Positions 36,665 to 64,000 of a stretch of DNA of 64,000 nt are shown one piece after another. The stretch is from Takakia lepidozioides. Lineage: Eukaryota; Plantae; Bryophyta. Numbering within the stretch: position 1 is the stretch's first letter; each line of letters opens with the position of its first letter. The stretch is taken from positions 88,722,001 to 88,786,000 of the forward strand of contig CM060731.1 of assembly GCA_030704615.1 (NCBI GenBank), in the 5' to 3' direction. The translations under genes and the position numbers were made by a program. The notes beneath the pieces were generated by a model that saw only the letters and a program-made list of their open reading frames with translations, had not been told where the DNA came from and did not search any database.

Positions 36665-39600
36665 GTGCTAGACGAGGAACGCAAAGCAGCATTGGAATCA
36701 AATGGTTTGAAAGATGAGGCGGGAGAACTCTGTCATTTGCAGCATTTGGTATCTCATTTGAAATGCATCCTACAGCTGCCCATAGACGGGATTTTCAATC
36801 ACACAAACCTACGTTGGATACGCCAGGTGGTTCCCAGGGAAAGGGAAACGGATATCCATCGAAGTAGTTGTCGTTCCATGGTTCGCATTCCTGACTTTCT
36901 GGAGGGAGAAAAAGGAGTAGAGTGGATGGGAAGACCCAATTTTATGTTCAAGATCGAAGGTACCGTGAGTTGCCAAATTTGACAAACACCGCGTGCAAAT
37001 AGTTATCGTCAGTGCAATAAGTAAGTCAGTTATGAGGGTTGTATAACATTCCAGGCCCCACTCTTCTGCTAGTCTAGCAAAGTCGTATATGGCGATAACC
37101 CTCCTCGCTTTATATGCTTTTTTGCAGGTACCACTGTGCTACGGCCCGATAGATAGGCGCACGGACCCGCCGATTGTGAAGAAGAAAGAAAAACCGATAG
37201 CAGGCTCCGATAATCAAACAGCAGTCAAGCGAATCAGACGTAAGGCAGCGGATTTCGGAGAGTCATTACAAACGTGGGTGTACGTGTAGCTTCAAAGTTG
37301 GCCAGTGTTTCTAGATTCAGAGGTTGGCAATCATCACATACTTCCAGAAACAGCATGTGGATGCAAAAGGAAAGCCATGTCATGGTTCAGCTGACCCCTC
37401 TTCCCATTTCTCGCGATTCGTGCATGCCCCTCGTCTCAGCCATGATATGAAACAGTGGATCGTCGATAGTCTTCGCAGTGGCCTATCTCCAGCTATGATT
37501 ATGACACAACACACTCAACAACTCCAGGAAGCTTGTGCGTCTCAGCGAAGCATGGAGTGGAGTCGCGATTGTTTCTTGTTCGAGTACAACGTGAGAAACA
37601 TTGCCGACAAGCTTGCGATTGAGAGTTACAAAAAAACATCCAGATGATGCACAAAGTGTACGTATGTGGGTCGATAGCAATCCTGAAAGCGTCTTCTTCT
37701 ACCATGAAGAGACAGCGCCAGTGGCGGGTGATTTGAAGTTCGTAATTGGAATACAAACGGAGTGGCAAAAACAGAAAATGATCGACCTGCAACATTTGGG
37801 ACCAACGAAAATAAGGTATTCGTGTCACGCTTTACCTTTCATTGCATTCTGAAATGTGAGTGCCATGCAACTGTTGCCAATATTATAACGCTCACCTTAT
37901 TCATTTTTGTACCATTGCGACATTGCAGTTCCCAATGTATACCATGATGGTGTTCGACGAATGGCTCAACGGCATACCTGTTGCTTATATTATATCAGCG
38001 AGAAACAAAACGACTGACCTGAGCCCCTGGATGAAACGTCTTCGCGACCGACTTCTTCAAAGCAAACCAGATTGGAGGCCAAATGCTTTTGTTGTCGACG
38101 ATGCAGACGCAGAAATCAATGCTATCAGGTACACGGCTAGAAGTTACAATGTTTTGAGTCACACTACAAGTTGCATGCACGAGGGGTTTCATGGATCGGG
38201 CTACACTGCTGCTAGTTACACTGAGAATCACAGTAAGAGTTAAACTGCCAGTTACACGAGGGGGTGCATTGCTGCCTGTAACACTTGGAGTTACACTGTC
38301 AGTTGCTTGAGGGGTTACATGGATTGGGTTGCAATGCTGTCTATTACACTGAGGGTTACACTATCGGTTAGACAGATGGTTATACTGCCTTGAGTTGGAC
38401 GGAGGGTTACACTGCTGTGAGTTAGACCGAGGGTTACACTACTGTGAGTTAGACCGAGGGTTACACTGCTATGAGGTAGACAGAGGGTTACACTGCGAGT
38501 TACACTGGGAGTTACACGGCGTGTCATCCGCAGTCCTGCATGGATTAGGTTGCACTGCTATAGCATGTGAGTTACACTGGGAGCATCGCAGAGGGTTGTA
38601 TGGGTTGGGTCGCTCTGAGAGTTACACGGTGTAACATGGATTGCGTTACAGCGCTGCGATGGGTTATATGTGTTGGGTTACACTGCTGTGAGTTTCACTG
38701 ATAGTTACATGACCAGATGCACGAGGGGTTACATGAGTCACACTACTAAGAGTGACACTTTGAAGAGTTACACTTCTACAAGTTACACTGCGAAGAGTTC
38801 CTCTGATAAGAGTTACACTGACAAGAGTTACACTGATGGATTGGGTGGCATTTGATGTGTGTGCGTGCAGGGAATCGTTTGGGGACGTAGCAATATTTCT
38901 ATGCCTTTGGCATGTTCGCCGCGCTTGGCTGAAACATTCGTGGCGTAAGATGCCCGATCCATACACTCGCAATGCTGTTTTGAAACAGCTTGGCGACGTA
39001 ATGTACGGCATTAACGCCTGTGTGGGAGTCACCCCAGAAGAGTGGGCGCTGGAGCGACTGGAAGATTTGAATTATTCCTATCCGCCTGCGCGTGACTTCC
39101 TACGTTACATCAGAATGGAATGGGTCCCAAAACTGAGCATGTGGATCACGGGGGCTCGTTATATTCCCCACGCAAGTCAGGATACTAATGCCGCAATTGA
39201 ATCTTGGCACGGAAATTTGAAGGCTCGTTTACGCTCGGGAAAGCAAAGGCTTGATGGCAGGAGAATCGATTGGCTGATCAGCGAACTCGTGGGTCTTGTT
39301 CTAACCCACTATTGGTATAGAGATAACTTGAAATCGAAAGGCTTCAAAAGGAATGTACGACAGGAGGAATTTATCAGTAATGTTGTTTGGACTGCAAGGG
39401 AGATCCCTGATGTCAATGTTCATTTGCCCACTGTTCCTGGTCATCCGGCGATTGTGGATAGTGTTCAAACGGCCGGTCGAAGCTACACAATCTATGCACC
39501 TGCGACCACCTGGGCTTGTTGCGATTGTCCATGGGCTTTGAAGGGTAACTTGTGCAAACATCAAATCCGCGTTCTTCAATTGATGAAGCCAAATCTGAAG

Positions 39601-40017
39601 GAAGGGCTTATTGTGAAGCTATGTGGCACAAAGCTCGGGATCATTCATGGAGGTCTTCACATGTTGATGAAATTGGAACTTCCAGATATTGATGCAGAGG
39701 AGGAAGTTGTGAATCTAGCAGAGCCTACGGAGTGCTCAGCATCATCCCGGCGTGGTCGGCAGGAGCCATCGGATGTTTCATCAATTGAATCTGAGATGAA
39801 GTCCCTGTCGCTTCTTGGCAATGAGAGTGAAACAATGCGCAAACATTTGTTTGCCGAGCTTCGTTGTGTTCGTGGGAGGCTGTCCACTTTACAAGTTAGA
39901 ATCGACAAAGGTCTGTTGCACCCTCTTCAAGCAGTTCCATTCATAAAAAATGATGATGGAAACAACATGTCCCTTGCCAGGAAAGTAGATTTTGTAGACC
40001 GCTTCCGTAGTAAGTGA
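36665..40017 (+). pseudogene. MULE DDE transposase with SWIM zinc finger; frameshifted
   Basis: Exons at about 36665-37020, 37128-37770, 37930-38129 and 38871-40017 encode KRGCTCSF, FPMYTMMVFDEWLNGIPVAY, WRPNAFVVDDADAEINAI, FLCLWHVRRAW (CxxH), DTNAAIESWHGNLK and the SWIM motif CDCPWALKGNLCKH. Frameshifts occur near 37268 and in the A-run near 37630. Confidence 0.88.
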
Positions 40018-42207: not shown

Positions 42208-42765
42208 TACAGAGGGTTACGTAGGTTACAGAGCCACAGAGGGTTTGTGAGGGTTACATGGTGGCGAGAGTGACACTCTGCGGTGTTACAGAGGGTTACA
42301 TGGAGGTAAGGGTTACACCTGGTGAGGGATATAGAGGGTCACAGAGGGTTACATGGAGGGAGGGTTACATGGTGGTGAGGGTTACAGAGGGTCAGAGAGG
42401 GTTACATGGAATGAGGGTTACATACGGGTGAGGGTGACACTCTGCGGTGTTACAGAGGGTTACATGGTGGTGAGGGTTACAAAGGGTCACAGAGGGTTAC
42501 ATGGGTTACAGAGGGTTACATGGAGTGAGGGTTACATAAGGGGTGAGGGCGACACTCTGCGGTGTTACAGAGGGTTACATGGGTTGCAAAGTGTTACAGA
42601 GGGTTACATGTAGTGAGGGTTACATAGGGGTGGGGGTGACACTCTGCGGTGTTATAGAGGGTTACATGGGTTACAGAGGGTTACATGGTAGTGTGGGTTA
42701 CACTCGGCGGAGTTACAAAGGGTTACATGGGGGTGATGGTTGAACCCGGGGCGGGGGTTACAGGG
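42208..42765 (-). repeat. Right subterminal array (GGGTTACA on + strand), inverted relative to the left array
   Basis: agagggttacatg units, the reverse complement of 34313-34950. Confidence 0.95.
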
Positions 42766-43403
42766 AACTGGCGGACTGCTGGAAGCGGCGGACTGGTGTC
42801 GCAGAACGACGACGCAAGGGGCGACGACGCCGATGGGATGAGGGCGGGGGTGGGGAGGGATTGACCGAGCCCAGCCGGCTGCCTTTCGATGTCTGCCGGA
42901 GGCGAAGAACCGGCGGTACGGGTGTCAGGGCTGGACCGTCCTGACGCGCTTGCATTAAGTTCTTACATTATTCCTATTATCTTCCTTAAACCAGAGTAGA
43001 GGAGATAAGTGTGCATCATATGATGGTGCTATGGCAGCATATTCAGCAACTTAAAATAGAAGCAACTTGAGCAACTCCGGCAAGCGGGTGAGGGTCATCT
43101 TGCCCAAGAAATAAACAACAAGATCCACACACATACATTCAAGCTAAGCAGGAGATACATAGACATGCATTTTATTTCCAAGTGAAGAACTTTACAATTT
43201 CTTGGCCTGCTGTACATCCACGGTCTTCTGCAAGAGATCTACTAACCGAGTTAGTACTAAGTGGGGGTCAGTTAATCTAATGTTTAGCGGTTGTAAGTTG
43301 TTGTGAGAGGACAGCTGAGGAGTATACGCCAAGAACAGCTAATGTATTTGCACAGCGAGCCCTGAGGAGGTGTGTTGTAGAAAGCGTTGAGTAGCAGAGA
43401 GTG

Positions 43404-44114
43404 TCAGTTGTGTCTACCTTCGGAAGTGCGACTGGACTGTGGTTTTGATCTGAGCACCCAAGTGTCGAGGTCGCCCTTTGTGTCAGCTGACACGATACAA
43501 ACTGAAGTGTAAATATCCCAACCTGCGGCATCCAGCGCGTCAATCAACCGCGCTAGAAACATGCGAGCGTACATGGTGTCAGTCCCAGACGCTGACCACG
43601 GCTGTCCGAGCATCTTGAACTCGGGCACCCCGTAGTAAGATCTCTCATCTTGCAATCCCTGTTTCCAGAAATTCTGGATGGTGGATCGTACCACCTGAGC
43701 CATTTCAACAGTGCCGTCTATCACCCGGATCGTATCACTTCTATTAAACGAGATTACGGACATGACCACGTTCGGCTCCGGAATCTGGCGCTTGAAATAC
43801 ATCGAGTCCTTTTGGGTTTCATGCTTGCTGATATCGGTTGTAATGAGGAGAGCCCAGCCTTCTTGCAGCATGAAGCGCAGGATGCGCGCAATGAGGTGAC
43901 GGGACTCGTTGGCTTCCTCGCTATTACCAGTCCATGGGTTGCCGTGAAGTTTGAACTGATGGGAGACGGAATAAGTTTTCTCGGATTGGATTCCTCCCTT
44001 CCAGGAGGATTGGATGACGGCCCGTATGGAATCAATCATGTTCTGTGGCAGATTCATGACGCGGATCTTATCCTTCTCGTGGAGAGAGATGCAAGTTGCG
44101 GGAACAACCACCAT
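43404..44114 (-). CDS. Intronless 236-aa uncharacterised protein built from two ~110-aa internal repeats
   Basis: Intact ORF. Repeat 1 (ISLHEKDKIRV..IQSSWKGGIQSE..FKLHGNPW..EGWAL..KDSMYF) aligns with repeat 2 (ISFNRSDTIRV..IQNFWKQGLQDE..FKMLGQPW..AGWDI..LDTWVL). Confidence 0.85.
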   Translation of the reverse strand: MVVVPATCISLHEKDKIRVMNLPQNMIDSIRAVIQSSWKGGIQSEKTYSVSHQFKLHGNPWTGNSEEANESRHLIARILRFMLQEGWALLITTDISKHETQKDSMYFKRQIPEPNVVMSVISFNRSDTIRVIDGTVEMAQVVRSTIQNFWKQGLQDERSYYGVPEFKMLGQPWSASGTDTMYARMFLARLIDALDAAGWDIYTSVCIVSADTKGDLDTWVLRSKPQSSRTSEGRHN

Positions 44115-45385
44115 GTTGGGGGATACTCGATGTCGAAATTTGTTCTCGGTGTTGTAGACTATGTGAAGGAGCTTGTGCTTGACAACCCACTTCTCTGTGG
44201 TGTTATATCAGAATTTGTCGCTTTGATAAAGCGTTGAAGTTTGAACTCGTTCGTTTCTTCAAGTGGTGCAGTACCGCAAGGGAGCCGCAAGTTTTCTGAA
44301 ACAGGTGCCAAGGAATGTCAGAGAACTCAAAGAAACAACTCGAATGAATCAGTTTATGCAAGTGTAAAACGCTATCCGTTCAATCTGCGGAAATCTCAGC
44401 TCTGTGTGGAGCGGCCTACCATATATTTGGCACGAGACGATTGTCCTGCTCAGGATATTCCAGTCTCTCCCAGTATCACCCCTCGTCGTTTTTTCTCTTG
44501 GTTCCTTTCCTTTCTTTTGTGTTCCGTGGGTTTAGGAGAGTAAAGGAAGGGACGGATGGAACACGGAGGAACAGGGAGTGTGGAGGGCTAAAGTCAACCT
44601 CTCTCTCTCCGGAAGTCGGTAGACCAGACAAGTACGTGCACTACACTCTTTGGGGTATCTCATGTGGGGCATGCTATTTGCGCGTACCGACACTCATTCA
44701 CAAAATACGTTACAACTTAGTGTGGACTACACTCCAACACAGGCTCGGAGACACCATATCGATTTGATACAATATTGACGAGTGTGCATCACAGTAATTC
44801 GTTGTGCATAATATCACTGTGGATGTTTGTGTAACTTCCTTGCAATTCTAGGGAGGGGGGAAGATGAGGCCGTACCGTCTCACCGCCGGGGTAACTTCCT
44901 TGCAAGTCTCAGTCCACATGATGGTAATTTCTGCGATCGTTCGTCTTTTTGACAACGGAAAGTCAGGTGCACGATTAGATTAGATTTGCGCGTCTTGCAC
45001 CGAGCCAGAGATTGACATGAATCTACATGAGAGTGTACAGATGAATTTCCTTTGTAATTCCTCAAAGGTGTTGTACATTCATGAAGGCCTGTATCTCAAA
45101 GTCGTCACACCACAGTATTATCCCTGTAACTTCGCAGTTCCAGCAATTGTAGAAGAAGGCAATTATCAAAGACTGGTCACCAAGTCTGCAAGTGATGCCG
45201 TCAATCTCCACCTACGTCTGCCCCATTGAATATCCTCTGTTGGAAGACTATCATATACAATCCTCGTACCATCGCTGCTCAGCCTCTCTCTCTCTCTCTA
45301 GATTATCAATTGCTGAGGTATCTCACAGATTGAAGCAGTCGAGGTTAAGCGAACAAGATGCGCTCCTCCGCGGCTCTTGCATATG

Positions 45386-48479: not shown

Positions 48480-49100
48480 AGTTACGAGCCACCCGGCAAC
48501 AACTCACCTTGGACCAGAGATCTTTGGAGGAAGACACTGCCTCCTAAATTTGTTAATATCCGCTCAGCAACAATACCTATATGCACAAACCGAAAGTGTG
48601 GTTCATCGATTTGTTTGAGACTATAGCCTACCATGCCATGTCTCTCGATAATTTGCAATGAACCAGATTGGGAGGCGCAGTTTGTGGATCTACCCATCCC
48701 AAATTTTTTTTATGAGCTTGTTCAGCATTTGAATACTTGAAATATATACCTGACAAACCATTTGCAGATGTAGATGCAGGAGTGTGCCACCTTTTTCCAA
48801 CGCACACAATGCAGCCACACAAGCTTCTTGCAGAAACTCGTCCATCTTTGCCGAACAATCTTCAGCGACATTTGCTCCTCCAACACCTATCGTCATGTTA
48901 GCTGCTAGAATTTTGTCCTCTGTTTTGCATCTGGTAGGCTTCCTCCTCTATTCATTCCATTTCCTTGCTTCAATCTTCTCTTTGTTCTGCGCAGATCATC
49001 TCATCTTTCACGCTACCGCCTTTAGGATCGCCATCTCGCTATCGCCTTTTTCGTATGCACTCTCGTTGCAACCTGATCTCCTTGCAACATGTTTAATGTT
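48480..49100 (-). mobile_element. Replitron-type HUH (Y1) endonuclease transposase remnant
   Basis: Across frameshifts it reads MTIGVGGANV...FLQEACVAALCALEKGGTLLHLHLQMV...LNKLIKK/NLGW...PPNLVHCKL / HGMVGYSLKQIDEPHFRFVH. This gives the HUH motif HLH and a single catalytic Y in GMxGYxxK. Termini were not identified. Confidence 0.75.
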
Positions 49101-49429
49101 CGTTCTTCCATACCACCCGTCACTCTGCATGTAGTTTTTTTAGAACAATCAATTCTAGAACAATTGACACAAGTCGCAGTCGACAGGTACTTTACGTGCA
49201 TGAACCATCTTCCATTTAATAGATGTCGTCTTCCTACCGTCTTTTTCTGGACCCCCTTACACAACTTGGTTATCTCTTCAAATCCCTCTATGTCTTATTA
49301 TATATCCCTCTTTTTAATTCCTGGACCATCTTTTAGTGGATAGAACCCACGCAAACTTGGGAGGCTTATTTTCATATTCTGAAGCACTTGTTCCATTTGA
49401 TGATGTCGTGCACATAAGCATCGTGCCAC

Positions 49430-52332
49430 AACATACATCGTTGTCCAACCACACTTCCTAGCATATAGTCCTAGAAAGCCACGCCACAATGGCTCCCCTA
49501 GCTAGTGATTAGGTCCCTCTAACACCGGATAGCTGCCAAGTATCCACCCCAATAAGATCATCGCTTGGTCTTCAATCACACAAGTCCCAACATCTGAAGT
49601 CGATAGATCAAGAGGTCGGGTGCAAACGTAGCCCCATCGTTAATCGCCTTCCTGCAATCCATGATCTTCAGTTGAGTATCTATGGCATTGAAGCCCCACT
49701 AGCTAGACCTTGGATCATTTGTCAGCCTCACCATTGTCATGCCCACTACCTCTGTCCAAGGCATCGTGGACACAACCATTCTCCGATAGGAACCTCCTCA
49801 AGTGGCGGTGTCAAGCATCCCATGTGCCACCCCCTTGAGCATTTGTCACACACCAGCATGGTTGCGGCACCACTAGCATGCGCACATAGCATGCAACGCA
49901 ATCCTACAGGATACCACTGTAAGGTTGGGATCTATCCTCCCATCCACATATGGCAGGTAACATGGCGTACAATTGCGCACATGGTCCTTCCATACCATGC
50001 CATCTCGACCCTCCAAAATCAACACTCCTGAAGGCAACACCTCCCTGACCCTTAGAATCACACGTCCTACTGTGACATCCAAGGTCATAGGTGTTGTCTG
50101 CTGTAGATACAAATAGTCCCCAAGGTGGAAACGCCGAACATGCCGATATCCCCATCCACGTATAGTGGCGTACCTCAATGTGTCTCGGTGTTGGGCAATA
50201 GCAAGGTTCTCAAAAGCCATAGGCATGACTCTCGTGAACAACTCTGTCTGTTGGGCATATGTTTGTGTCCATACATCCGGATCATCAAGGTTAAGGACTA
50301 CTGCAGCCTCTCTGCGAATAGATGTAGACAAATCTGGCTCTCGGTCGAAGAGAAGAAAGTTTGGTGAGAAGGAGGCAAGTAAAGCTTGTTTGCTGAACCT
50401 ATAGCCCATAGCTAGCCAAGGCAGCTGAAGGTTCCAATCTCCTAGGTGTCCCTTCTGTAAGCCATACTTGCGCAAACCGTCAAACAACTCTCTCCGCCAA
50501 GCCATCAGCCTCGGGATGATCCCGAGAAGTAGTGTGGTGATCTATCAAGGCTTGCTCACACAAAGCCTGAAACTCCCCCAAGAACTCTCTCCCCTGGTCC
50601 GTGAGTACCTCAGTTGGAGCACCAAATTGGCTAAGCACTCGATCTAAGAATGCATACGCAAACCCCTCACTTGCTTGTCAGGCAATGCCACCAGCTCAAT
50701 CCATTTGGAGAAATGTTCTACCATCACCAGCACATACTTGTTATAATGACGAATCGTTGGTGGCAATGGACCTGCGAAGAAAAGACTACAACAATAGCCC
50801 AAACCCATAATGAATAGAAGATGCAATTGTGGAGTAGGGGCGTTGAAAGAAGCCCGCACTCTATTATACACCATGCACCTTGCCACTAACTACTGTACAT
50901 CCGTGTACACCAATACTGTTCTTGCAGGAAACTATGAGTGCGCCGCACCCCAAAATGTCTCAACTCCTCATGGGCATGGCGTACCAATCACGCTCATTGT
51001 GTTGGATGAGGCACAATCCTCACTCGTCTATCCTCCCATACTCGGAGTAGATGAGTCCCCTCCCACTTGAACCTCTTGGCTCATTGTAGGATCCGATATC
51101 TCTCCTTAGCAGTCACACTGGCTGCTGTCTCTCCGGTACGAAGGTAGGCCAACATTGTTGCATCTTCATGTACATGTTATAGAGTTTCTTGTTCATTTCT
51201 TCATTTCTGCCTAGTGTTATGACTTGCACCCTGAGTTGCGGCGAGGCCAGTTGCAAAGGAACAATGGTGGCCGAGGGCGAGGTGACTAATCTGTGGATCG
51301 TCATGCACAATATCTATATGACCAATCGCATGAGATGGACCAGCTTGAGCTCCCATTGCTAGAATGCACAAAAAGGTAGATGCATGTCATTCTGGCACCA
51401 TCTCCTCATCCGTCTCACCATGCCACCAAGCTCTAGTATCATCATGCTCGCTCGTGCATGGATTACGACTCAACCCATCTGCATCCCGATTGACTATACT
51501 GGCTCGATGCACCACCTGGAAGTTGTACTCTTGAAGCATAAGTGCCCACCGTGCAAGCTTCCATGTAAGCTTGTCTGACTCCATCAACCACTTCAATGGT
51601 TGGTGATCCGTGACAAAGGTGAAGAGATTGTCATAGAGGTAGCATCTGAAATGTGCCACTGCCCATACCGTAGGTAAATATTCTCCTTCATATGAGCTAT
51701 ACTTCGCTTCGGCACCATTGTTCGAGCGGCTAGCATATGCCACCACGAACTCTCTTCCCTCATCATTCACCTGTGTGAGCACTGCTCCAATCCCCAACAT
51801 ACTCCAATCCGTATGTAGCTGAAAAGACCGCCTCAGAATAGGTGCAGAAGTCAATCGAGCCTTGAGTTCCTCAAAGGCTTCCTCCTGCTCCTCCTCCCAC
51901 TACCACTCCTGACCCACCTTGGTTAACTTGGTAAGAGCCTTTGCAATGCTGCTAAATCCCTTGACAAACCGTCGATAGTAGTTTGTCAATCCCATGAAAG
52001 TATGAACTCTGCTCACATCCATAGGGCGTGGAATGGATACAATGGCCTCCACATTTGTCTGTTGAATACCCAATCCTCCAAGGTATATCATGTGGCCCAG
52101 ATACTCAATATGATTGTGGAAGAACTTGCACTTTCCAGGGTGCAGTTTCAACCCGTGCGCTCTCAAGCGCTCAAACACCACCAAGGTGTCTCTCATGCTC
52201 CTCAACCATAGCACTAAAGACAATGAATGTCATCAATGAAGCACCGGGCGAAGTCTAGCCCCGCGAGAATCCTATCCATGACCCTTTGAAACTCTGCAGG
52301 AGCATTCTTCAATCCAAACGGTAAGAACCGCC
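49430..52332 (-). mobile_element. Ty3/Gypsy pol, 3' part (RT C-half, RNase H, integrase, PHD finger), PPT and start of 3' LTR; decayed
   Basis: Reads RFLPFGLKNAPAEFQRVMD..CFIDDI; FQLHTDWSMLGIGAVL..VAYASRSNNGAEAKYSSYEGE..TDHQPLKWL; HEELRHFGVRRT; AGPLP..VEHFSKW, VLTDQGREF, HPEADGLAE; and the PHD CMLC..MLVCDKCSRGWHMGCLTPPLEEVPIGEWLCPRC* (about 49745-49905). A PPT-like AGGGGAGCCAT is followed by TG at about 49488. Confidence 0.9.
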
Positions 52333-54664
52333 CACTACAAGAGATGAGCGTTTTTAGGACTACGGATTTGGCGGAGTCATAAAAACGGCACTAGGTATAC
52401 AACTACAGAGCGTTGAAATTCGTTGCAGTCATAGTTTTATCACTTTGTAGTAATGGATATCACTACATGACTCCGGAAAGTTAGGGAGCATTGGTCAAAC
52501 ATTGTTGACCATGATGACATGGATGGTTTTATGACTAGTGTGATATGTTTGACTACACGTGGACGACGTTTCATGGAATCTTGTGACTCCATGACTGAAG
52601 ATGGTTTTACAGCTCTATTTATACGACTACATCCCTACACGTGTCATTTGAAAATCATATACACAAATGTATTCATCCATTGGATGAGTTTATCCATCGA
52701 CGACATGGCATGTAAACAATTGAGTCCCTTACTGCAAATTGTTTCATAACTCTATATATATGACTACATCACTACACGTGTCATTTAAAAGGCATGTACA
52801 TTAATGAATTCATCCAATGGATGGGTTCATCCATCCACCTATACGGTGTGTCGATTTGATATATGTTCAATAAATTGGACCTGGATGGACGTGGCTTAAC
52901 AAGCATCGCAAGATATATGAGATTAAAATACGCAATGGTCATGATTGTACAAGGTTAGATCATGTGATGGAAATTATTTTGAATCGTTATATTTAACAGG
53001 ATCTAACGGTCTAGATTATTTAAGATCTAACGATCTAGATTGTTTAAGATCTAACGGTTTAAAATTACACCGCCAAACTTTACACCGGGCTGGGACTTAA
53101 GGTTTTTTTGTCTCCTGCGTCTCTGTTTGATATTGTGTCATGGAACGCGATGATCGCAGGATCTGCAGGGGCGTGGGATGGAGGCTTTGCAGACCTTCCT
53201 ACTCTTGAGCAAATGATGCAGGAAGGAGAAGAGGAGGAGGAGAGGAGACGAGGAGAAGATCCCAACATTCTTGCGAACTCGCCGTTCTTGGGAGAGTCAG
53301 CTTGGTCTTAGCAGGCCGTGTTTCAATCTATGCCTACTCAGCTGCACCGTGGTGGTTCGATCTCACATACCAATCCGACATTATCTGACTACAGATACAA
53401 GCAGCACACACAAGAGGTTTTTTTGGGTTGATGGTCGGTCAAATCCTCCATGGGTCATGACACAAGGTAGGGGACAATGTGGTGAGGATACCTTCTTCTT
53501 CGACTTATTTCAGCCTGTTTTGCCCTCTCATCAGACTCGGCCCTGAGATGCATATTGAATTTTGTAAGATAGCTCGTTGGGTGGATCTGTGGTTGTTTAG
53601 AATGACTTTGACAAGTTGTTGCCGATGTGGTAGCATGAAAGTATCCAAAAATAGGTAACAGAGATGAGGAAAAGCTTTGGAATGAACACTTTTCCGACCC
53701 CAGTCAATGGCGGGACAATGGAGACAAAAAGGTGAGTGCATATTGGACTACACTAGAGAGAAGTAGATGCAATTTAGAATTAGAACTACTGTAATAATTA
53801 GGGTTGGGGTTTGTTGGAAGAACTTCACGCCATCAGTGTCAGATGCTAGCAACAAGTATTCATGATTTGTACACAGACAAGGATAGCTGAAGGACCAGGG
53901 ATAGAGGTCGAGGTTCATCCAAGAGGGCCGGATTTCAAACACAAGATTAGTTCTGATTCCCTGTGGATCAATAGCTACAAGAAATCTGCTAATGAGAAAA
54001 TGGTCTGCTAATGAAGACACATTTTTCAACGCATTTCACCCTGTTTTTCCCTCTTATCAGAATCGGCCCTAAATTTTCATGTTGAATTTTGCAAGTTAGT
54101 TGGTTGAGTGAACCTAGGATAGTTTGGAGTGACTTTGACATGATACTGCCAATGTGACAACAGGAAAGTATCCAAAAGATGTAACAGAGATGAGGAGAAG
54201 CTGTGGAATGAATACTTTTTTGACCCCAGTCAATGGTGGGACAACCAAGGCAAAAATGTGAATGCCTGTCAGATTACCAGATGTCATTTTGAACACTGCC
54301 CCTGCCTTGGTGGACATGTATATCAAATGTGGGTGCATCGAGGATGCAAAAGGAGTGTTCAACACTATGGCTGAATGAGATGTGGTGTCATGGAGTGAGG
54401 GAAGGGGTACTGAAGCCCGACCACATAACGTGTGTGTGTGTTTGCAATGCGTGTGCAAGCCTGGCAGCCTTGGAAAAGGGCAAAAGGTCCATGGTTGCAT
54501 CGTCAAAGTTGCAAATGTACCAGATGTCATTCTGAACACTCCCCTGGTGGACAATATGTATGCCAAATGTAGGTGTAGCAAGGATGCAAAGGGAGTGTTC
54601 AACAACATGGCTGAACAAGCTTGGAGTACCATGATGACCACCTTTCCCGGTGAGTCTCTCTCTC

Positions 54665-54695
<31 letters not shown>

Positions 54696-57600
54696 CCTCC
54701 TCTGATGCCCTCATACTGTCCAGTGGAAATACAGTTAGGCATTAAACCTCCCTAAACTTGTTTTGAATATGGGACATGGGCAAGGACCTTAAGGACTATC
54801 TCAATGGCCTACCTGCCCTTGTCACTAGACTAAAATTTAAACTCGGGGTGGGAAACTACAAGTGCATCCACGAGCTACCACACTTAACATACATGTTGAC
54901 AAGGGTGTTGTGTAGAAAAGCATTTAATGCATTCAATCCACTTAATATAATGTGAGCATATGCACCTGATTTTCAGTCTGCAAGCCTTTCAGCTTGATGC
55001 TCTTATGCTTGAGACAGGGGGCTTAGGTATCTGAATATGCTGAAATTATGCCTAGCTGGTTGAAGTCTGTAGAGCCTCTTTCAGTTGCAGGATGGGGAAG
55101 GCAGGGTTCAAGGAGGCGGGGGAAAAATAGAATACTGCTCAGTATGACTCTTGGAGCAATTCCAGCTTAAAATGTGATGATGTCACCATTGGGGCATGGA
55201 CCTCTTGGTCGTTTACAAGGGACTTGGGAGGGTCAGCATGATCAGCCTGTGTATGAAGGCTGGCAGCCCTGGAATTTTATAACCAGATGTCATTCTGAAT
55301 ATCCCCTAGTTCTGGACATATATGCCAATGTCAAGGGAGTGTTCAACACTATGGCTAAACGACGAGTGCGATGCTTGCAGGGTATGCACAACAAGGATGC
55401 AAGATGGAGGCTTTGGATACCTATGAGTAATTGATGGGGAAAGGGGTGAAGCTCGACCACATCATTTTAGTGTGAGTTTGCAGTGCGTGTGCAAGCCTGG
55501 CAGCCCTGGAAAATGGCAAAGAGGTGCATGGTTGCATCACCAAAGCTGGAATTGTACCATATGTGATTCTGAACAATACCTCATGGATATGTATGCGGAG
55601 GGAGCCTTCAACACTATGGCTGAACGAGATGTGGTGTCGTGGAACGCGATGCTTGCAGGATGTGCACAGCAAGGGCGCGGGATGGAGGTTTTGGAGACAG
55701 GAAAGTATCGAAAAACAGTTAACAGAGACGAAGAGAAGCTCTGGAATGAATATGTTTCCGACCCCTGTCAATGGTGGAATAATCCAAGCAAAAATGTGAA
55801 TTCCTGTTGGAAGCAGATGCAAGTCAGCATAGGAACTAGTGGGATAAGTAGGGTTGGGGTGTTTGCTGGAATACTTATAGGCTGTCATTGTCAGCTGCTA
55901 GCAGCAAGACAATGATGTATGCATGATTTGTGCAGAGGCAAGGATAGCTGAAGGAGCAGGGATAGAGTGTGGGTCCAGATTCATCCAAGAGAGCCGGATT
56001 AGCTCCAGATTACCTATGATTCCATGTGGATCAATAGATACAAGAAACCTGCATGGGTAGATGGTCAACTGGAAGCCGTAGCAGCAGGGCACAATTGATA
56101 AAATTAGGCATTGCTAATGAAGGCACCTTCTTCAACACATTTTACCCTTGTTTTTCCCTCTTATCAGAATTGGCCCTAAATTTTCATGTTGAATTCTACA
56201 GGTTAGAGTTCTTTTGATAGTTTGGAGCGACTTTGACATGATACTGCCAATGTAACAATAGGAACTATCCAGAAACAGGTAACAGAGACAAGGATAAGCT
56301 ATGGAATAAATACTTTTCTGACCCCAGTCAATGGTGGGGCAATCGAGGCAAAAGGTGAATGCCTGTTAGATTACAGAGAGTAGCAGATGCAATTGAGCAT
56401 AGGAACTAGTGTGATAAGTTGAGTTGGTTGTTTCCTAGAACAAATACAGGCTGTCATTGTCAGCTGCTAGCAGTAAGGCAAGATTTATGCATGATTTGTG
56501 CAGAGGCATGGATAGGTGAAGGAGCAGGGATAGAGTGTGGGTCCAGATTCATGTAAGAGGGCCAGATTTCAAGCTCCAGATTACCTATGATTCCCTGTGT
56601 CGAAGGATAGCTACAAGAAACCTGCATAGGTAGATGGTCAACTGGAATTTGCAGCAGTAGCGGCACAATTGATAAATCAAGGCACTGGTACACCTTCTTC
56701 AATAGCACAGCGACTACAAGTGGGTAGATGGTCTCCTAGAAACAGCGACAGCAGCACAATTGATAGAACAAGACACTACTACCTTCTTCAACATATTCCA
56801 CCGTGTTTTCCCCTGCTATCAGAGTCGTCCCTATATTTTCATGTTGAATTCTGCAAGTTAGCTCCGCGTTGGTGGATCTCTGGTGGTTTTGGAGTGATTT
56901 TGACATGTTATTGCCAATGTGGTCAACAAGAAAGTATTGATTAAATAGATAACAGAGACGAGGAGAAGCTCTGGAATGAATACGTTTCTGACCCCAGTCA
57001 ATGGTGGAACAATCGAGGAAAAAATGTGAATGCTTGTTGGAAGTAGAGGCAAGTCAGCGAGTATGGTAAATAGGGTTGGGGTGTTTGCTGGAACAATTCT
57101 AGGCTGTCATTGTCAACTGCTAGGAGCAAGGCAATGATGTATACATGATTTGTGCAGAGGCATGGATAGCTGAAGGAGCAGGGATAGAGTGTGGGTCCAG
57201 ATTCATCCAAGAGGTCCGGATTTCAATCTCCAGATTACCTATGATTCCCTGTGGAAGGAATATAGCTACAAGAAACTTGCATGGGTAGATGATCAATTGG
57301 TTGGTTTTGAGTTGAAGAGCACGACCCCTGCAGGGATGTCTCTCCATCTGTAGATCTTTTAGGAAGTGGAAGGCTAGGGCCCAGCTTTCTTATGACAGTG
57401 TTAGCTGATTTCAGTTCTTCTCCTCAGCTCGGTGCCTTTCTGTTTCCAAGTTATGGCAATAGTTTATGGCTGCAGTCTTTTTTCATGCTAGACTCTTTAG
57501 CTCTATGCAGGCCCCCTTCTTTGCTTGCCTTCCTTCTTACTACTGTTTCTTGTTTTGGTACGCGAAGCTGTGTCTTCCTCTTTCAGCCTCTATGGCACTC

Positions 57601-58214
57601 TATCCAGAGGTTATTTTTTCCTCTTTGTATCCATGTACATTTTATGGCCACTGTCTCCCACTGTCCCTCTTTGTTAACAAAAATAAAAATAATAAAGAAA
57701 AGACAACCATTCTACTTTCCTAGAAACCTAATGAGAATTTAAATCAATTAATAATCTAAATATTATAATTGTATGATTTAATTTATTAAATTAAAATACT
57801 ATTAAAAACCTCTTTAGTCATGAAGTTATATACTCATGACTACATCATGGCATCGTGGCACTATATGATACGATATTCTTAGTGTAGGTAATATATATTG
57901 TCCATGTGGACACATGTCACATCCGGAGTGCTACATGTGTCCTTCTGACGCCTCTCCAATGGAGTCATATATTTTGTAGACATGTAGTCATATAGTTAGT
58001 TATATATAAATCATATAGTTGTGACTACATCGCTCTCTGCAGCATGACTCCACGTGCCACGCACGCAGTCACGGCTATGACTTGCAAAACGCAGTCCTAA
58101 AGACTAGTCGCTATGACAGGGTTTTTTTCACTGCAGAGTGATGTAGTCATGAACGCATATAAGACTGAAAAATAGTCATATGTGCAGTCATAAAAACGTT
58201 CATCTGTTGTAGTG
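52333..58214. mobile_element. Non-autonomous CACTA element (Pack-CACTA, 5882 bp) inserted in the Gypsy RT
   Basis: TIRs CACTACAAGAGATGAGCGTTTTTA / TAAAAACGTTCATCTGTTGTAGTG, a 3-bp TSD GCC (52330-52332, 58215-58217), and subterminal GACTAC/GTAGTC repeats. Removing the element restores the RT reading CLYQW|RFLPFG. Confidence 0.95.
53125..57300 (+). pseudogene. Captured cargo: PLS-class PPR fragments interleaved with intron-containing OSB-type PDF-motif repeats
   Basis: PPR pieces read LVDMYxKCGCIEDAKGVFNTMAE*DVVSW and LEKGQKVHGCIVK. PDF pieces read DEEKLWNEYFSDPSQWWDNxxKK |intron| HPRGPDFKHKISSDSLWINSYKKPAWVDGQL, with about 5 complete or partial copies. There are many stops and frameshifts. 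Confidence 0.82.
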
Positions 58215-58217
58215 GCC

Positions 58218-60012
58218 ATTGGTACAAACAATCCTTCCCATGCTGGTCAATCCCCCATAATGTCGTCTTTTGCTTGTCAGCCTCTTTGATAGGCAACTGG
58301 TGGTAACCGGATCGCAGGTCCAATGTGCTAAACACCTTTGCATGCCCAATGACATCAAAGATCTCCTCTGGAGTTGGTATGGCATATTTATCGGACTTAG
58401 TCTGACGGTTCACAGGACGATAGTCTCCACACATCCTTCTTTTTGTCCAGTTGCCATAAATATCATTTTTAGCTGGCATCACCGTTGCCGAGGCATACTC
58501 CCTGCCTGACAACTCCACCAATCCAGCTTCGAACAACTCCATAGTTTGTGACCGGATCAAAGACCTCTCCATGTAGGGCCTTCGAAATATTGGCGTGTCA
58601 CTTGCCAAATCAATACGAATCTCCTGGCCCTTCAAACTCCCCAAATCCTTCAAACCGAAGGCAAAGAAATTTCTATAAGCCCTTAAAAATCGCTGGATCC
58701 TCCGTCTCTCTCCTTCGGTGACTGTAGGTCCAACATCGCGTTCCCAATTGTCCTCAGTGACTGCAACCTTGGGTACACCAGGCTTGGAGGTAGGAGACGC
58801 ATCCTTTGGTTGCTAGATAGTAACCTCTTGGGCCTTATCCGTCCACTCAGATTGTGGCGTAGCCTCCACTTGCTCCGCCATAGCCACCTTGAGAACATCC
58901 TCTGAGCAAGAAACATCCTCAACCTCTTCAAAAACCTTGGCTACCTTGGCCTCCAACTGATTCTCAATCCATGGCTCTCCCCACTCCTCATACTGCTGCT
59001 TGAGAGATCCAATGACTCTCTCTTTGCGCATCTCATCCCACATCTGTCATGGGTGTTTGCACCCCATGATCCCGTGCTCGCCCCCACTCACTGCCTTAAC
59101 CGTCCCGGTTGGCAGGGAGGATGCACTATCCAATGTGAGTGTAGAAGTAGCCACCAATGCTTGCAATCTCCGTTGCTCAGCCATGCACAAGCCAATGACC
59201 CATGTCAAGTAATTTAGATCCATTGCTTGACCCAACACTTGTCGACGTGATGCCTCTGACAGAGCTGGCACAGCTATAGTGCCCGTGACAAACCCTATTG
59301 CCCGCTCTCGCTCATCCACATTGGGCTCCACCAATTATTGTAGCACACTGTCCCAAATCAACCCAGGACCATTGTCTCGAAAAACATGAGACGAGGGAAA
59401 GCTCATGAGTGTAGGTAAGGCCGTACGTGGCTGCCCCACTCGATTGACCACCTCCAAAGGTGGATGGTCGTCATGTCGCACCTTTTGTGGCTGCTTCTCT
59501 TGGTCCAAAATGCCCTCAACTGTGAGGTTGGGTGGTCGTTGAATGGAATCATAGACTCTCTGGAGCAACTCTGGTGGTGCAAAGATTGGTCCACCACAGT
59601 CGATGCGCGTGTGATCCCACCGCTGCTGCATCCAATAGCACTGCCAATCCAATCCAAGACCGCACTTGATGCACATTGGCCATAACCCTGGCCGGAGAAT
59701 CCCCCATAAGAGGAACATTCTCCAAGATATAGCCTAGAGGTTGCACTTGCCTCGTCTGCAAGTCACGCAACACTCGCAACATCTCCCAAAACAAATGCGA
59801 TCGTGCATCATGCAAGCCATTTCCATGACCTGCGGGAGAGTATCTTTGGCAAGGCCATCCGGCTATCACCAAGTCAATGGAACCATGCCGGTCCAAATCA
59901 TCCACCCCCAACAAGGTAATGTCTGCTGGCAAGGTCTTTTGATACCCTTGATTTGCTGAGAGAGGCAATAACTCAAGATACCGGTGTGTAAGCAAGGCCA
60001 TGTGGCGCATGA
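58218..60012 (-). mobile_element. Ty3/Gypsy pol, 5' part: C5 cytosine DNA methyltransferase domain followed by RT N-half; decayed and truncated upstream
   Basis: DNMT motifs IV (DLVIAGWPCQ), V (GLHDARSHLFWE), VI (YILENV), VIII (LLDAAAVGSHAHRLWWTN) and IX-X (ERERAIGF...RRQVLGQAMD). Then RT: EYASATVMPAK...RRMCGDYRPVNRQT..FSTLDLRSGYHQL. Confidence 0.9.
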
Positions 60013-60359
60013 AAATCCTGGGGGGTGCACTCTTCATTAAATGTACCAGCCACGTGCGTGCACAGGAGGGGGTATTTTAAACCCCCCCATGTACAACATT
60101 ATACATACAGAGGGGGGTTTAAAACACCTTAAATATAATATTACAGGAGGGGGTTGTTGAGTTTTCAGGGGTAGTGTAGTGGTAAGAACGATGATTAGGC
60201 TGCGATGCACCGCGGGATCAATTCCTTTTGTTTGGTTTTTTGTTTTTTGTTTTTGTCTCCCCGCAATCTTTCTCCCCTTCCCTCCAGCGGCTTTCTCTTT
60301 TCCCTCTCCTCCTCTCATCTCCTCTCCCGCGTTCACCTTCCCTTCCGCGAAGATGCCTG

Positions 60360-63300
60360 AACAAGATGTGGCATCGTGCAAGCCTGGCAGTCCTAGAGAA
60401 GGGCAAAGAGGTGCATGGGGATATCGTCAAAGCTGGAGTTGTACCAAATGTCATTCTAAACACTGCCCTGGCAGCTCTGGAAAAGGGGAAAGAGGTCCAT
60501 GGCGACATCTTCAGAGCTAGAATTGTACCAGCTGTCATTCTGAACAATACCCTGGTGGACATGTTTGCAAAATGTGGGTGCATCTTGGCGAAAAACCGTG
60601 CAAGGATCTGTTCTTGATGTAAGTGAAGAGGGTCGCTCTCAGAAGGGAGTGTACACCGGAAATGTATCAGAAAATGTTTAGTCTTCAGGCTTCCCGCACG
60701 TCGGGCATTGACAGGCTACCTCTCATCTCTGCATCTGTTTGTTTGTTCAAAGGTACACTCCCCGACCTGCATTTCAATTTCAGTCTATTGCCAAGAGTAG
60801 AGAGAGCAAAATGTACTCATATGACGTTTGCCATTGCATTGTGGCCATTTACCCAGTCCGTGCCCAGTTTGGGCGGAACAGGGAGAGGTGTTGTGAGGGA
60901 GAAGTACTCATGATAGCCTTGTGGCCATAGACCCTGCACCCTGATTGGGCAGAATAAAGAGGAGGAGAGAGAGAGTCATGACACTGGTTGCTAAAACCTT
61001 GCCAGCCCTAGACCCCGCCCCAAAGCAGAAGATGGACATGGCGAGGAGGAAACAACAAGTAGGACTGCGAAACCACTTCAATCCATGCCCCATCAAAGGG
61101 ACCTATCTTCATTTACAAAGTCAAAGGAGTGTTCGACACTATGGCTGAACGAGGTGTGGTGTCGTGGAGTGCGGTGCTTGCAGGGTATGCACAGCAGAGA
61201 CGTGGGATGGAGGCTTTGGAGACCTATGAGCAAATGATGTGTGACGGGGTGAAGCCCGACCACATCACGTTTGTGTGCGTTTGGCAGTGCGTGTGCAAGC
61301 CTGGCAGCCCTGGAAACGGGCGAAGAGGGTGCATGTCGACATCGTCAGAGCTGGAATTGTACAAAATGTGATCCTGAACACTTGCCCTGGTGGACGTGTA
61401 TGCCAAATGTGGGTGCATGGAGGATGCAAAGGGAGTGTTCGACAATATTGCTGAATGAGATGTGGTGTCGTGGAATGCAATGATCGCAGGATATGCACAG
61501 CATGGTTGTCATAGGGAGGTCCTGCAACTATTGCAAAAAGAACGGCTTGAAGCAGTTTGTGTTCTCTCTGCATGCAGCCACACTGGCCTTCTGAATGAAG
61601 GAAGACGCTACTTCGATTCCCTGATTCAAGATCATGGTGTCACTCCGACAGTATAGCACTTTGGCTGCATGGTGGACCTTCTTGGACATGCGGGACAACT
61701 GGATGAGGCAGTGGACCTGAACGTGCGGCAACATCTATCCTCAAGTGGAATGAACAGGATGTCGCGACTTATGTTGCTATCAAACATCTATGCTGTAGCT
61801 GGCAGGTGGGTTGATACTGTAAAGGTGAGAAGAATGATGAAGGTCAGAGGGGTTGAAAAGGAGCCAGGTCGCTGTTGCATTGAGGTTTGCAACAGGGTGC
61901 ACACCTTCGTTGTAGATGACAAGTTGCATCCCAGAATTAAGGAAATCCATGCTGAGCTGAGAAGATTGTCTGGGAAGATGAAGGTGATTTGCCAGGAGAC
62001 GTTTTCCAGATTACCTATGATTACCTACAAGAAACCTGCATGGATAGATGGTCAAGTGGAAGCTGCAGCAGCAGCTGCACAATTGATAAAATCAAGCGTT
62101 GCTAATGAAGGCACCTTCTTCAACACATTTCACCCTGTTTTTCCCTCTTATCAGAATCAGCCCTAAATATCCATATTGAATTATGCAAGTTAGCTAGTTG
62201 AGTGAATCTTTGATAGTTTGGAGTGACTTTGACATGATACTCCCAACTGACAACAGGAAAGTATCCTAAAAGAGGTAACAAAGAAGAGGAAAAACTGTGG
62301 AATGAATACTTTTCTGACCCCAGTCAATGGTGGGACAACCGAGGCAAAAAGGTGAATGCAAAAAGGTGAATGCCTGTCAGATTACCTGTCATTCTGAACA
62401 CTATGGCTGAACGAGATGCGATGTCGTGGATTGTGCAGGGTATGCACAGCAGGGGTGCGGGATGGAGGCTTTGGAGACCTATGAGCAAATGATGGGGGAA
62501 GGGGTGAAACCGCCCACATAACGTTTGTGTGCGTTTGCAATGCGTCTGGCAGCCCTGGAAAAGGGCAAGGCAAAGAGATCCCTGGTGACATCATCAAATC
62601 TGTAATTGTACCAGATGACATCCTGAACATTGCTCTGGTGGCCATGTATGCCAAATGTGGGAGCATTGAGGATGCCAAGGGAGTATTCAACACTATGGCT
62701 GAATGAGATGTGGTGTCGTGGAACGCGATGCTTGCAGGGTGTGCAGAGCAGGAGCGCAAGATGGGGCTTTGGAGACCTGAAAGCAGATGATGGGGGAAGG
62801 GGTGAAGCTCGACCACATCATGTTTGTGTGCTTTGCAGTGCGTGTGCAAGCCTGCAGCCATGGAAAAGGGCAAAGAGGTGCATGGTTGCATCACCAAAGC
62901 TGGAATTGTACCGGATGTGATTATGAACAATACCCTTGTGGACATGTATGCCATTGTGGGAGCATTGAGGATGCGGAGGGATTGTTCAACACTATGGCTG
63001 AACGAGGTGGTGTCGAGGAACACGATTCATCCAAGAGGTCAATTTTAAACACAAGATTACTTCTGATTCCCTGCGGATCAATAGCTACAAGAAAGCTGCG
63101 TGGGTAGATGGTCAACTGGAAACAGCAGCGGCAGTAGTGCATTTGATAGAACAAGGCGCTGCTAATGAAGGTACCTTCTTCAACACATTTCAGCCTGTTT
63201 TTCCCTGTTATCATAGTTTTTCCCTGTTTTTTCCTGAATGAGCATGGATAGAGTGTGGGTCCAAATTCATCCAAGAGGGCTGGACTTCAAGCTCCAGATT

Positions 63301-64000
63301 ACCTTGATTCCATGTGGGGGTCAGTAGCTACAAGAAACTTGCATGGGTAGATGGTCAACTAAAGGCAGCAACTGCAGCGGCACAGTTGATAAAATCAGGC
63401 ACCTCAACCATGACCACAGCTTCTGAAAGAGGATCAAGAGAGGGAGTCCACAATGTTTTTCTACTCAACACCCTTGTCAACATGTATGTTATGTGCGGGA
63501 GCATCATTGATGCTCACCAAGTGTTCAACAGAATGCCTCAACGATCTTTGATCACGTGGAATATAATGTTGGCAAGGATGCAATGCGTGTCCAAGCCTGC
63601 GAGATCTGGAAAAGGGGAAAGAGGTCCATGGTGACATTGTCAAAGCTGGAATTGTACCAGATGTCATTCTGAACACTCCCCTGGTGGACATGTATGCCAA
63701 ATGTGGGTGCATTAAGGATGCGAAGGGAGTTTCCATGGCTGAACAAGGTGTGGTGTCGTGGAGTGCGGTGCTTGCAGGGTATGCACAGCAGGGACGTGGT
63801 ATGGAGGCTTTAGAGACCTATGATCAAATGATGGGGGAAGGGGTGAAGCCCAACCACATCACGTTTGTGTACATTTGCAATGTGTGTGCAAGCCTGTCAG
63901 CTCTGGAAAAGGGCAAAGAGGACCATGGTGACATTGTCAGATTTGCAATTGTATCAAATGTCATTCTGAACAATACCCTCGTGGACATGTATGAAGGGAG
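60360..64000 (+). pseudogene. Second cluster of degenerate PLS-PPR (with E/E+ and PG-box region, no DYW) and PDF-motif fragments; continues beyond the window
   Basis: Repeated P-L-S motifs. 61560-61983 reads LSACSHTGLLNEGRRYF..HFGCMVDLLGHAGQLDEA..LLSNIYAVAGRW..VRRMMKVRGVEKEPGRCCIEVCNRVHTFVVDDKLHP. PDF exons lie at about 62005-62110, 62257-62351, 63025-63170 and 63265-63400. Stops and frameshifts occur throughout. Confidence 0.85.

Follow-up and report, generated by a model that had tools for sequence, protein, structure and literature searches.

The 64,000-nt stretch of Takakia lepidozioides DNA analysed here (assembly GCA_030704615.1, contig CM060731.1, positions 88,722,001 to 88,786,000 of the forward strand; hereafter the window) carries on its minus strand a broken copy of an old, abundant Ty3/Gypsy-type retrotransposon family of green plants, whose members combine a DNA methyltransferase (DNMT) domain with an integrase that ends in a PHD finger. 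Judged by sequence comparison and by the main-text description of KnitGypsy-Dnmt3 from Klebsormidium nitens (PMC5890265), the element is the land-plant branch of that lineage. The domain order in this branch is gag-protease-DNMT-stop-reverse transcriptase (RT)-RNase H-integrase-PHD, and the conserved in-frame stop between the DNMT and pol makes it likely that the methylation writer and the chromatin reader are separate proteins.

The DNMT, pol and PHD finger form one family

With an inserted CACTA-type transposon taken out, the minus strand carries, in order, DNMT, RT, RNase H, integrase and PHD, as a sequence-only reading of the window had it; translation and Pfam bear out this order. RT, RNase H and integrase thus stand in the Ty3/Gypsy order in the window, and relatives carry gag and protease upstream. 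A metagenome scan yielded 53 loci with the DNMT, of which 34 extend at least 600 nt beyond it; RT lies directly behind the DNMT in 31 of these, mostly about 300 nt on, the exceptions being L001 (where the start of RT falls at the contig end), L019 and L023. A PHD match is present in eight of the nine loci with room after the integrase, and the ninth, L005, shows PHD-end DNA by blastn. Most of the 53 loci are members of a single family, into which named Sphagnum proteins also fall in the DNMT tree (100/100), and some share one insertion, so that the loci are not independent cases; at least three divergent families are present. That the DNMT is a chance neighbour of the window copy, or was captured once in it, could draw on the decayed state of this copy and on nothing else, and is refuted by the 31/34 linked loci. 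Named proteins from liverworts, mosses and algae show this order too, and the RT and DNMT trees group the same sets; both facts contradict a chance association, which we regard as practically impossible.

Protein searches extend the family to named plants. The DNMT piece retrieves 41 longer proteins, among them gene models of Marchantia, Calypogeia and Sphagnum, some with DNMT, RT and RNase H together, and the integrase-PHD piece retrieves 74 proteins. RT-RNase H of a close relative gives 1295 matches, the best 120 of which include Riccia, Coleochaete, Closterium, Klebsormidium and chlorophytes. Relatives of the window element occur in Marchantia, Calypogeia, Sphagnum, Closterium, Klebsormidium and Mesostigma, and the land-plant family that had been proposed is real, with members in Marchantia, Calypogeia, Sphagnum and Riccia. 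No fern, lycophyte or seed-plant name appears among the matches listed (41, 74 and 120 rows), a weak negative given that most rows are nameless, and two scans of viral contigs found no relative.

In the host-labelled run X1, 80,935 contig pieces align to the 11-kb stretch of the element (CACTA included), read depth being no measure of copy number; most are less than 99% alike, which points to many divergent copies. Contigs of host-labelled runs, of which X1-X3 are one sample and possibly the source of the window, cover every bin of the element, and one contig of 2173 nt spans both RT halves without the CACTA insert.

Layout and decay of the window copy

The features of the copy are collected in Table 1. 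In the DNMT remnant we see motifs IV (GWPCQ), VI (ENV), VIII, IX (ERxxGF) and X (RRxxLGQ), with the catalytic Cys codon at 59849-59851, the Glu codon of ENV at 59720-59722 and one frame break near 59582; translation confirms that motif I is lost at the 5' break. In the profile scan of the window, the Pfam C5-methyltransferase profile (DNA_methylase) matches 59552-60076(-) with E 1.9e-13, over the curated cut-off. The RVT_1 pieces (58150-58812, 52220-52330 and 51903-52229) are each under their cut-off at E 1e-4 to 1e-5, as is rve (E 2.4e-6), and Integrase_H2C2 reaches E 6.2e-7. An integrase piece (50647-50889) and the C-terminal piece of the DNMT (59338-59733) lack a Pfam match, and both match relatives by tblastn.

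The CACTA insert measures 5882 bp, has terminal inverted repeats of about 30 bp and PPR gene fragments inside, and is flanked by a 3-bp GCC target duplication (52330-52332 and 58215-58217). The two RT halves that it separates join without a gap when aligned with an intact relative: one half stops at reference residue 194 and the other begins at 195.

Table 1. Features of the element in the window, listed from its 5' end (minus strand)
Feature	Position	Strand	Basis or remark
DNMT3-like C5 methyltransferase remnant	59158..60046	-	Pfam PF00145; tblastn and blastn to relatives; translation
Linker, poorly conserved, closing the gag-protease-DNMT frame	58816..59157	-	translation, relatives
Conserved in-frame stop TAG, then CAA CCA	58807..58815	-	fits the CAR-YYA readthrough consensus
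Reverse transcriptase, N-terminal half	58215..58806	-	Pfam, match to relatives
CACTA-type DNA transposon inside RT, not part of the retroelement	52333..58214	undefined	ends, duplication
Reverse transcriptase, C-terminal half with FIDD motif	52050..52332	-	Pfam, match to relatives
RNase H	51390..51899	-	Pfam PF17917 (RT_RNaseH), E 4.5e-32
Integrase: H2C2 finger, core and C-terminal part, interrupted by stops and frame breaks	49921..51050	-	Pfam, tblastn
C4HC3 PHD finger, closing the pol frame with its own stop codon	49746..49931	-	Pfam PF00628, E 8.4e-12
Polypurine tract region	49489..49503	-	about 90% identity over 40 nt to the tract of L010 and L042
Terminal repeat B (TGTGG...CACGACA), 85 bp, complete	49404..49488	-	element end = 49404

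The copy lacks motif I, protease, gag and the 5' terminus, and is interrupted by many stops and broken frames. Three stops lie between motif VIII and RT, the C-terminal part of the DNMT being in frame with RT. The earlier verdict of a dead copy with stops and frameshifts therefore holds, except that the stop at 58813-58815 is a conserved feature of the family and no sign of decay. The element also reaches further than its previous limits of 60012 and 49430: homology extends to about 60019 (protein) or 60046 (DNA), and the 3' end lies at 49404. What had been taken for the start of a long terminal repeat (LTR) after the polypurine tract (PPT) is one complete 85-bp repeat, here called B, and the termini are not an LTR pair. 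Repeat A and the second B of whole copies are missing, so that the copy ends in PPT-B like L015, L016 and L043.

Exactly where the DNMT is cut off, 60047-60184 holds a short segment with an inverted repeat at 60071-60128 and, near 60180, a CACTA-like end; the loss of the 5' part may be due to this segment.

The DNMT domain is of the DNMT3 type by profile and predicted fold

Against solved structures, the family profile scores best with DNMT3A (E 8e-17), followed by DNMT3C and DNMT3B; the next entry is 4onj (3e-8), and DRM2 (9e-4), bacterial enzymes and DNMT2 also lie far below. For an intact relative, modelled with pLDDT 90, every Foldseek match listed is DNMT3A, DNMT3B or DNMT3C. Profile and modelled fold thus agree in assigning the domain to the DNMT3 type, as had been suspected from motifs IX and X. 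We considered a DRM identity and rejected it, the motifs running I-IV-VI-VIII-IX-X without circular permutation and DRM2 scoring far below DNMT3A. Compared with DNMT3A, both types of DNMT found in the lineage (upstream and internal, see below) have some 20 additional residues in a shared insert, and the spacing between motifs I and IV is 82-93 residues in 26 of 28 printed rows, the other two being mis-matched by the search pattern, versus about 69 in DNMT3A.

The catalytic Cys and the Glu of motif VI are kept in 118/118 representatives, namely those that cover the domain among the best 150 of 525 representatives at 50% identity (E 1e-30 or better); they were found with the family profile itself, which favours such invariance. 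Between families, amino-acid changes in the DNMT are far rarer than silent ones (proportion of non-synonymous differences, pN, 0.24-0.39 versus synonymous, pS, 0.69-0.87). Omega is 0.11, 0.13 and 0.17 in three of seven between-family pairs, dS being saturated in the other four, and 0.55-0.56 in two within-family pairs of decaying copies. The unsaturated pairs fall below the Ka/Ks of 0.2 used for KnitGypsy-Dnmt3, and the sequence comparison indicates that the DNMT is under purifying selection.

Base composition gives no sign of self-methylation in the form of CG or CHG depletion. The CHG observed/expected ratio is 0.71 in the element versus 1.04 in the rest of the window, which fits host silencing.

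A conserved stop separates gag-protease-DNMT from pol

The stop is followed by CAA C(C/T)N in 35/38 records; of the other three, L038 has a double stop in a different context, L040 is decayed and the stop of L024 is unrelated. The hexamer in the window fits CAR-YYA, and the main Sphagnum-type family fits five of its six bases. CAR-YYA is given as the readthrough signal of tobacco mosaic virus (TMV) in the cited account (PMC2194720). Among host copies, 16 positions are variable (at least 5%) in 181 nt and none of them falls in 58807-58815, a count over four runs of which three are one sample. In named proteins of Marchantia and Calypogeia, 96-100 residues follow motif X, compared with 100 in the Sphagnum-type frame, and from these gene-model ends we infer a stop in Marchantia as well.

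Because the DNMT closes the gag-protease frame in land plants, it would be made in excess over pol. The sequence-only reading had placed both the DNMT and the PHD finger in pol; in the land-plant branch the stop splits gag-protease-DNMT from RT-RNase H-integrase-PHD. A single write/read module, as also proposed there, is unlikely, since the polyprotein has one of the two domains at either end and, by Ty3/Gypsy biology, would be cleaved. With the PHD finger unjoined to the DNMT after cleavage, such a module is loose at best in land plants.

The PHD finger occupies the place of a chromodomain

The PHD finger lies at the integrase C-terminus, the place of the chromodomain in chromoviruses, as had been proposed; since it closes the integrase, a role in targeting is the simplest reading. 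Its best matches in the Protein Data Bank are CHD4, PHF12, KDM5A/5B and PHF21A, several of which we take to read unmethylated H3K4. Readers of H3K4me3 carry a cage Trp two residues before the Zn-binding His. A finger of this kind (ING/BPTF type) was rejected here, the cage position being Gly in 164/179 and Trp in 1/179. We also rejected a chromovirus, the PHD finger standing instead of a chromodomain, which gave no match in the window piece, P0045, P0050 or P0171. In chlorophyte-type members the DNMT comes directly before integrase-PHD. Three chlorophyte-type polyproteins (P0151, P0084 and P0067) extend beyond the PHD finger, P0151 with a weak PTM/DIR17-like Tudor match there.

Termini and priming site

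Whole relatives have the layout A-internal-PPT-B-A-B with TG...CA ends, or A-internal-B, and not the two ordinary LTRs of a Ty3/Gypsy element. All 14 complete 5' ends (about 12 distinct sites) start at A, none with B before it. The 3' end is B-A-B in five loci (L010, L025, L035, L042 and L047), is cut by the contig end within A in one, is B alone in three, as in the window, and is rearranged in one. The B-only ends could result from recombination between two B repeats or from collapse in the assembly, L016 (B) having a flank in common with L042 (B-A-B). A 4-bp target duplication is found in 5/5 relatives with both ends, the window copy having lost its 5' end. We considered a tyrosine-recombinase element of the DIRS/Ngaro kind and rejected it, the lineage having an rve integrase and these 4-bp duplications instead. 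In L008 (6332-6443) and L011 (6342-6453), repeat B is inverted upstream of gag, where A is expected, marking a rearranged copy.

The B|A junction is near-palindromic around a 2-nt spacer, and its two halves are the element ends. In 8/14 copies, the bases that directly follow the first A are complementary, over 11-19 bases, to a part of A that lies 25-30 nt behind a TATA-like box, and an RNA assumed to start there folds back with a z-score of -3.2. By analogy, the layout resembles that of Tf1-type self-priming as described in the cited accounts (PMC6317226; PMC2864245). B+A is bordered as an ordinary LTR would be, the PPT preceding B and the primer site following A. It therefore behaves as an LTR, but the inserted DNA begins and ends inside it.

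Phylogeny points to one old capture

In the RT-RNase H tree, a quick tree with a non-monophyletic outgroup, elements that carry the DNMT or the PHD finger form one clade (55/66 rows, SH-aLRT 98), in which the RT of the window joins sequences from liverworts and mosses, adjacent to Coleochaete. The DNMT tree, from which four short or long-branch rows were left out and which has no host DNMT3 or DRM root, splits by domain position with support 100/97. The upstream type (30 rows) includes Klebsormidium, Mesostigma, Closterium and land plants, whereas the internal type, in which the DNMT follows RNase H and precedes integrase as in the chlorophyte branch, has 18 rows and includes Tetradesmus and Hariotina. 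The full order RT-RNase H-DNMT-integrase-PHD occurs in 28/150 representatives. Among 122 further domains, all 79 with a readable order agree with the type of their best match. On this sequence evidence, a single old DNMT capture followed by one move is likely, the single capture being supported by the one RT clade and the shared insert between motifs I and IV.

A proposed replication cycle and its alternatives

We favour, with fair confidence, a reading in which the DNMT3-type methylase, likely present at the abundance of a capsid protein, would methylate the element's own cDNA, and in which the PHD finger of the integrase likely picks the target chromatin. The RNA would start inside A and prime its own minus strand, as Tf1 does, the step that we hold most secure. 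Probably, too, most ribosomes would halt once the DNMT is made, with readthrough by a few per cent of them, so that the DNMT is packaged in excess over RT and integrase. With somewhat less assurance, the protease would free the DNMT, which would then methylate new double-stranded cDNA in the particle, probably at CG, and the copy would arrive resembling methylated host DNA. The two remaining steps are put forward at little better than an even chance. In one, B+A would be the true LTR, the cDNA ends would be joined (A|B), and the integrase would cut the palindromic B|A site, giving A-internal-B-A-B. In the other, the PHD finger would bind the H3 tail unmethylated at K4, with insertion biased away from active promoters.

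Several observations weigh against this reading. The strict CAR-YYA signal is present in 4/38 records only, no RNA structure stands out 3' of the stop in folding (z -0.8 to -1.0), and several algal or environmental members (P0171, P0183 and Closterium) have a continuous frame, so that the stop is not universal. The pol frame could be reached by reinitiation, an internal promoter or splicing, with the DNMT still closing the gag-protease frame: the main Sphagnum-type family reads CAA CCC and then ATG, an in-frame start two codons after the stop that would allow reinitiation, and the in-frame gag-pol stop context of Tca2 gave no readthrough in a yeast reporter, as described in the cited account (PMC2194720). 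The window's own family and that of L020 lack a Met near the stop, however, and the frame is kept across it in three divergent families, with the next six bases invariant among host copies. We regard a route other than readthrough as rather improbable, although reinitiation is a serious contender in the family that has the ATG. As to the DNMT itself, Glu replaces the Pro before the catalytic Cys in 65/118 representatives (chlorophyte-type members and Mesostigma), the element is not poorer in CG than its surroundings (observed/expected 0.53 versus 0.51 in the rest of the window), and the Klebsormidium enzyme produced no methylation in yeast, a result that its authors call inconclusive in the main text (PMC5890265). 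The lack of excess CG loss and the inactivity in yeast would also accord with a domain that acts on host chromatin at or around the insertion site, or that serves mainly as a nucleic-acid binder in the particle, and the position directly before integrase-PHD in the chlorophyte branch (the 28/150 with full order) suits delivery to the target. In land plants, however, the DNMT belongs to the gag-protease frame and is remote from the integrase, and a pure binder is at odds with a catalytic Cys and Glu that never vary (118/118); we think either role unlikely. Finally, an acidic residue before the first Cys, typical of readers of unmethylated K4, is not conserved in the PHD fingers of the family.

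The termini raise objections of the same kind. Complementarity to A is poor or lies elsewhere in 6/14 copies, and the mirror form A-B-A-internal-B occurs at none of the 14 5' ends, though a symmetric two-LTR circle should give it, an absence that the end-joining route leaves unexplained. It agrees, as does the 2-nt A|B spacer in 4/6 junctions, with ends that are not rebuilt in each cycle, A-internal-B-A-B being inherited by copying an RNA that extends across the second B, a route proposed for tyrosine-recombinase elements with split repeats. Yet the irregular A|B junctions of L025 and L028 carry 17-22 extra nt with remnants of the PPT or primer site, like joined cDNA ends, and the PPT before B and the primer site after A are ordinary LTR borders for B+A; we consider such copying a possibility, if a doubtful one. 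Both the layout and the primer remnants are explained if cDNA ends are joined and the integrase then cuts at the inner palindrome.

Joined into a single history, a green-plant Gypsy lineage would have gained DNMT3 and PHD before the chlorophyte/streptophyte split, kept both and moved the DNMT once. Its land-plant members would combine a capsid-level methylase made via a leaky stop, cDNA pre-methylation, self-priming, end-joined cDNA opened at the LTR palindrome and PHD guidance to H3K4-unmethylated chromatin. We offer this composite tentatively and think it unlikely to hold in every part.

Relation to known elements and significance

KnitGypsy-Dnmt3 (de Mendoza et al. 2018, PMC5890265) resembles the window element, as far as its main text describes it, in its Gypsy domains, its non-permuted Dnmt3-type DNMT under purifying selection, and its DIRS-like split repeats (Fig. 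4c legend), a layout of A-coding-B-A-B that is found here. The genes for K. nitens gag-DNMT (KFL_013780020) and RT-RNase H-integrase (KFL_013780010) bear consecutive numbers and each lie on a contig of 7497 nt, and both proteins fall in the DNMT group and RT clade of the window; the K. nitens DNMT (P0254) lies on the window's side of the 100/97 split. In that account, however, KnitGypsy-Dnmt3 is an acquisition of the K. nitens lineage with the DNMT in the pol frame, whereas the lineage described here has land-plant members, a conserved stop before pol, a PHD finger, self-priming and 4-bp duplications. The DNMT is thus not in the open frame of RT in land plants, the two sharing a frame with a stop between them. 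Neither 'PHD' nor 'Marchantia' occurs in the main text of PMC5890265, to which the comparison is confined.

The same paper describes SymbioDIRS-Dnmt3 of Symbiodinium, likewise a retrotransposon with a Dnmt3-type DNMT, whose enzyme methylates CG de novo in yeast and for which cDNA methylation is proposed (PMC5890265). It differs in being a tyrosine-recombinase element without a DDE integrase, with no PHD finger reported in that text, and represents a separate capture. Gypsy-7a_cRei of Chlamydomonas (Craig et al., bioRxiv 10.1101/2022.06.16.496473) has a Gypsy polyprotein with a PHD finger, and its insertions are described as 2.6-fold enriched between genes, with targeting suggested. By that description it differs in having LTRs at both ends and no DNMT among its listed domains. 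The window element is of a kind less new than was implied, KnitGypsy-Dnmt3 being of the same lineage and a PHD finger being published for a Chlamydomonas Gypsy element.

Tf1/Sushi and the plant Tcn1 chromoviruses, compared by their description in REXdb (PMC6317226), share self-priming in place of a tRNA primer and a chromatin reader at the integrase C-terminus; they differ in carrying a chromodomain, not a PHD finger, and ordinary LTRs. The terms 'PHD', 'methyltransferase' and 'methylase' are absent from the REXdb main text (PMC6317226). Like SIRE1, Tca2, murine leukemia virus (MuLV) and the TMV signal, as presented in PMC2194720, the window's lineage has two frames split by one in-frame stop, but that stop follows protease and DNMT and is placed neither after gag nor before env. 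We found no paper on land-plant members, the conserved stop or the integration route in a search outside which most subscription papers and Repbase lay.

DNMT-carrying retrotransposons have so far been described as oddities of dinoflagellates and one alga. The present results turn a capture supposed to be confined to Klebsormidium into a likely very old lineage of green plants. Since the lineage is present in Marchantia, a model plant with methylation mutants, self-methylation of transposon cDNA becomes testable there. It follows that gene models annotated as 'DNA methylase' in bryophyte genomes are in many cases transposon frames, and the termini suggest a possible new integration route for a DDE integrase.

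Other features of the window

PPR fragments run throughout the CACTA insert (52333-58214), with no transposase seen among its open frames, and its interior is heavily covered by host contigs, including those of a run guessed to be RNA; the insert looks like an abundant, gene-fragment-carrying CACTA family. Further PPR fragments with E and E+ motifs lie at 60376-63998 and repeat pieces found inside the CACTA insert; PPR proteins of the E/E+ kind are indicative of a land-plant host. Just beyond the 3' end of the element, 48485-48947 (-) gives two consecutive weak Replitron_HUH matches under the cut-off (E 0.006 and 0.07) and is likely a decayed replitron. Long inverted arms of TAACCC-like tandem repeats (34091-36155 and 42236-42985) bound the segment 34091-42985, which has a 417-aa frame with a weak SWIM match (38764-40017) between them and is likely a Mutator-like element. 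At 28117-28953 (+), a host gene exon encodes a Myb/SANT-like (trihelix-type) DNA-binding domain. An intronless 267-aa frame with an internal duplication and no Pfam match occupies 43404-44207 (-); its CG observed/expected ratio, 0.91, is unlike that of its surroundings.

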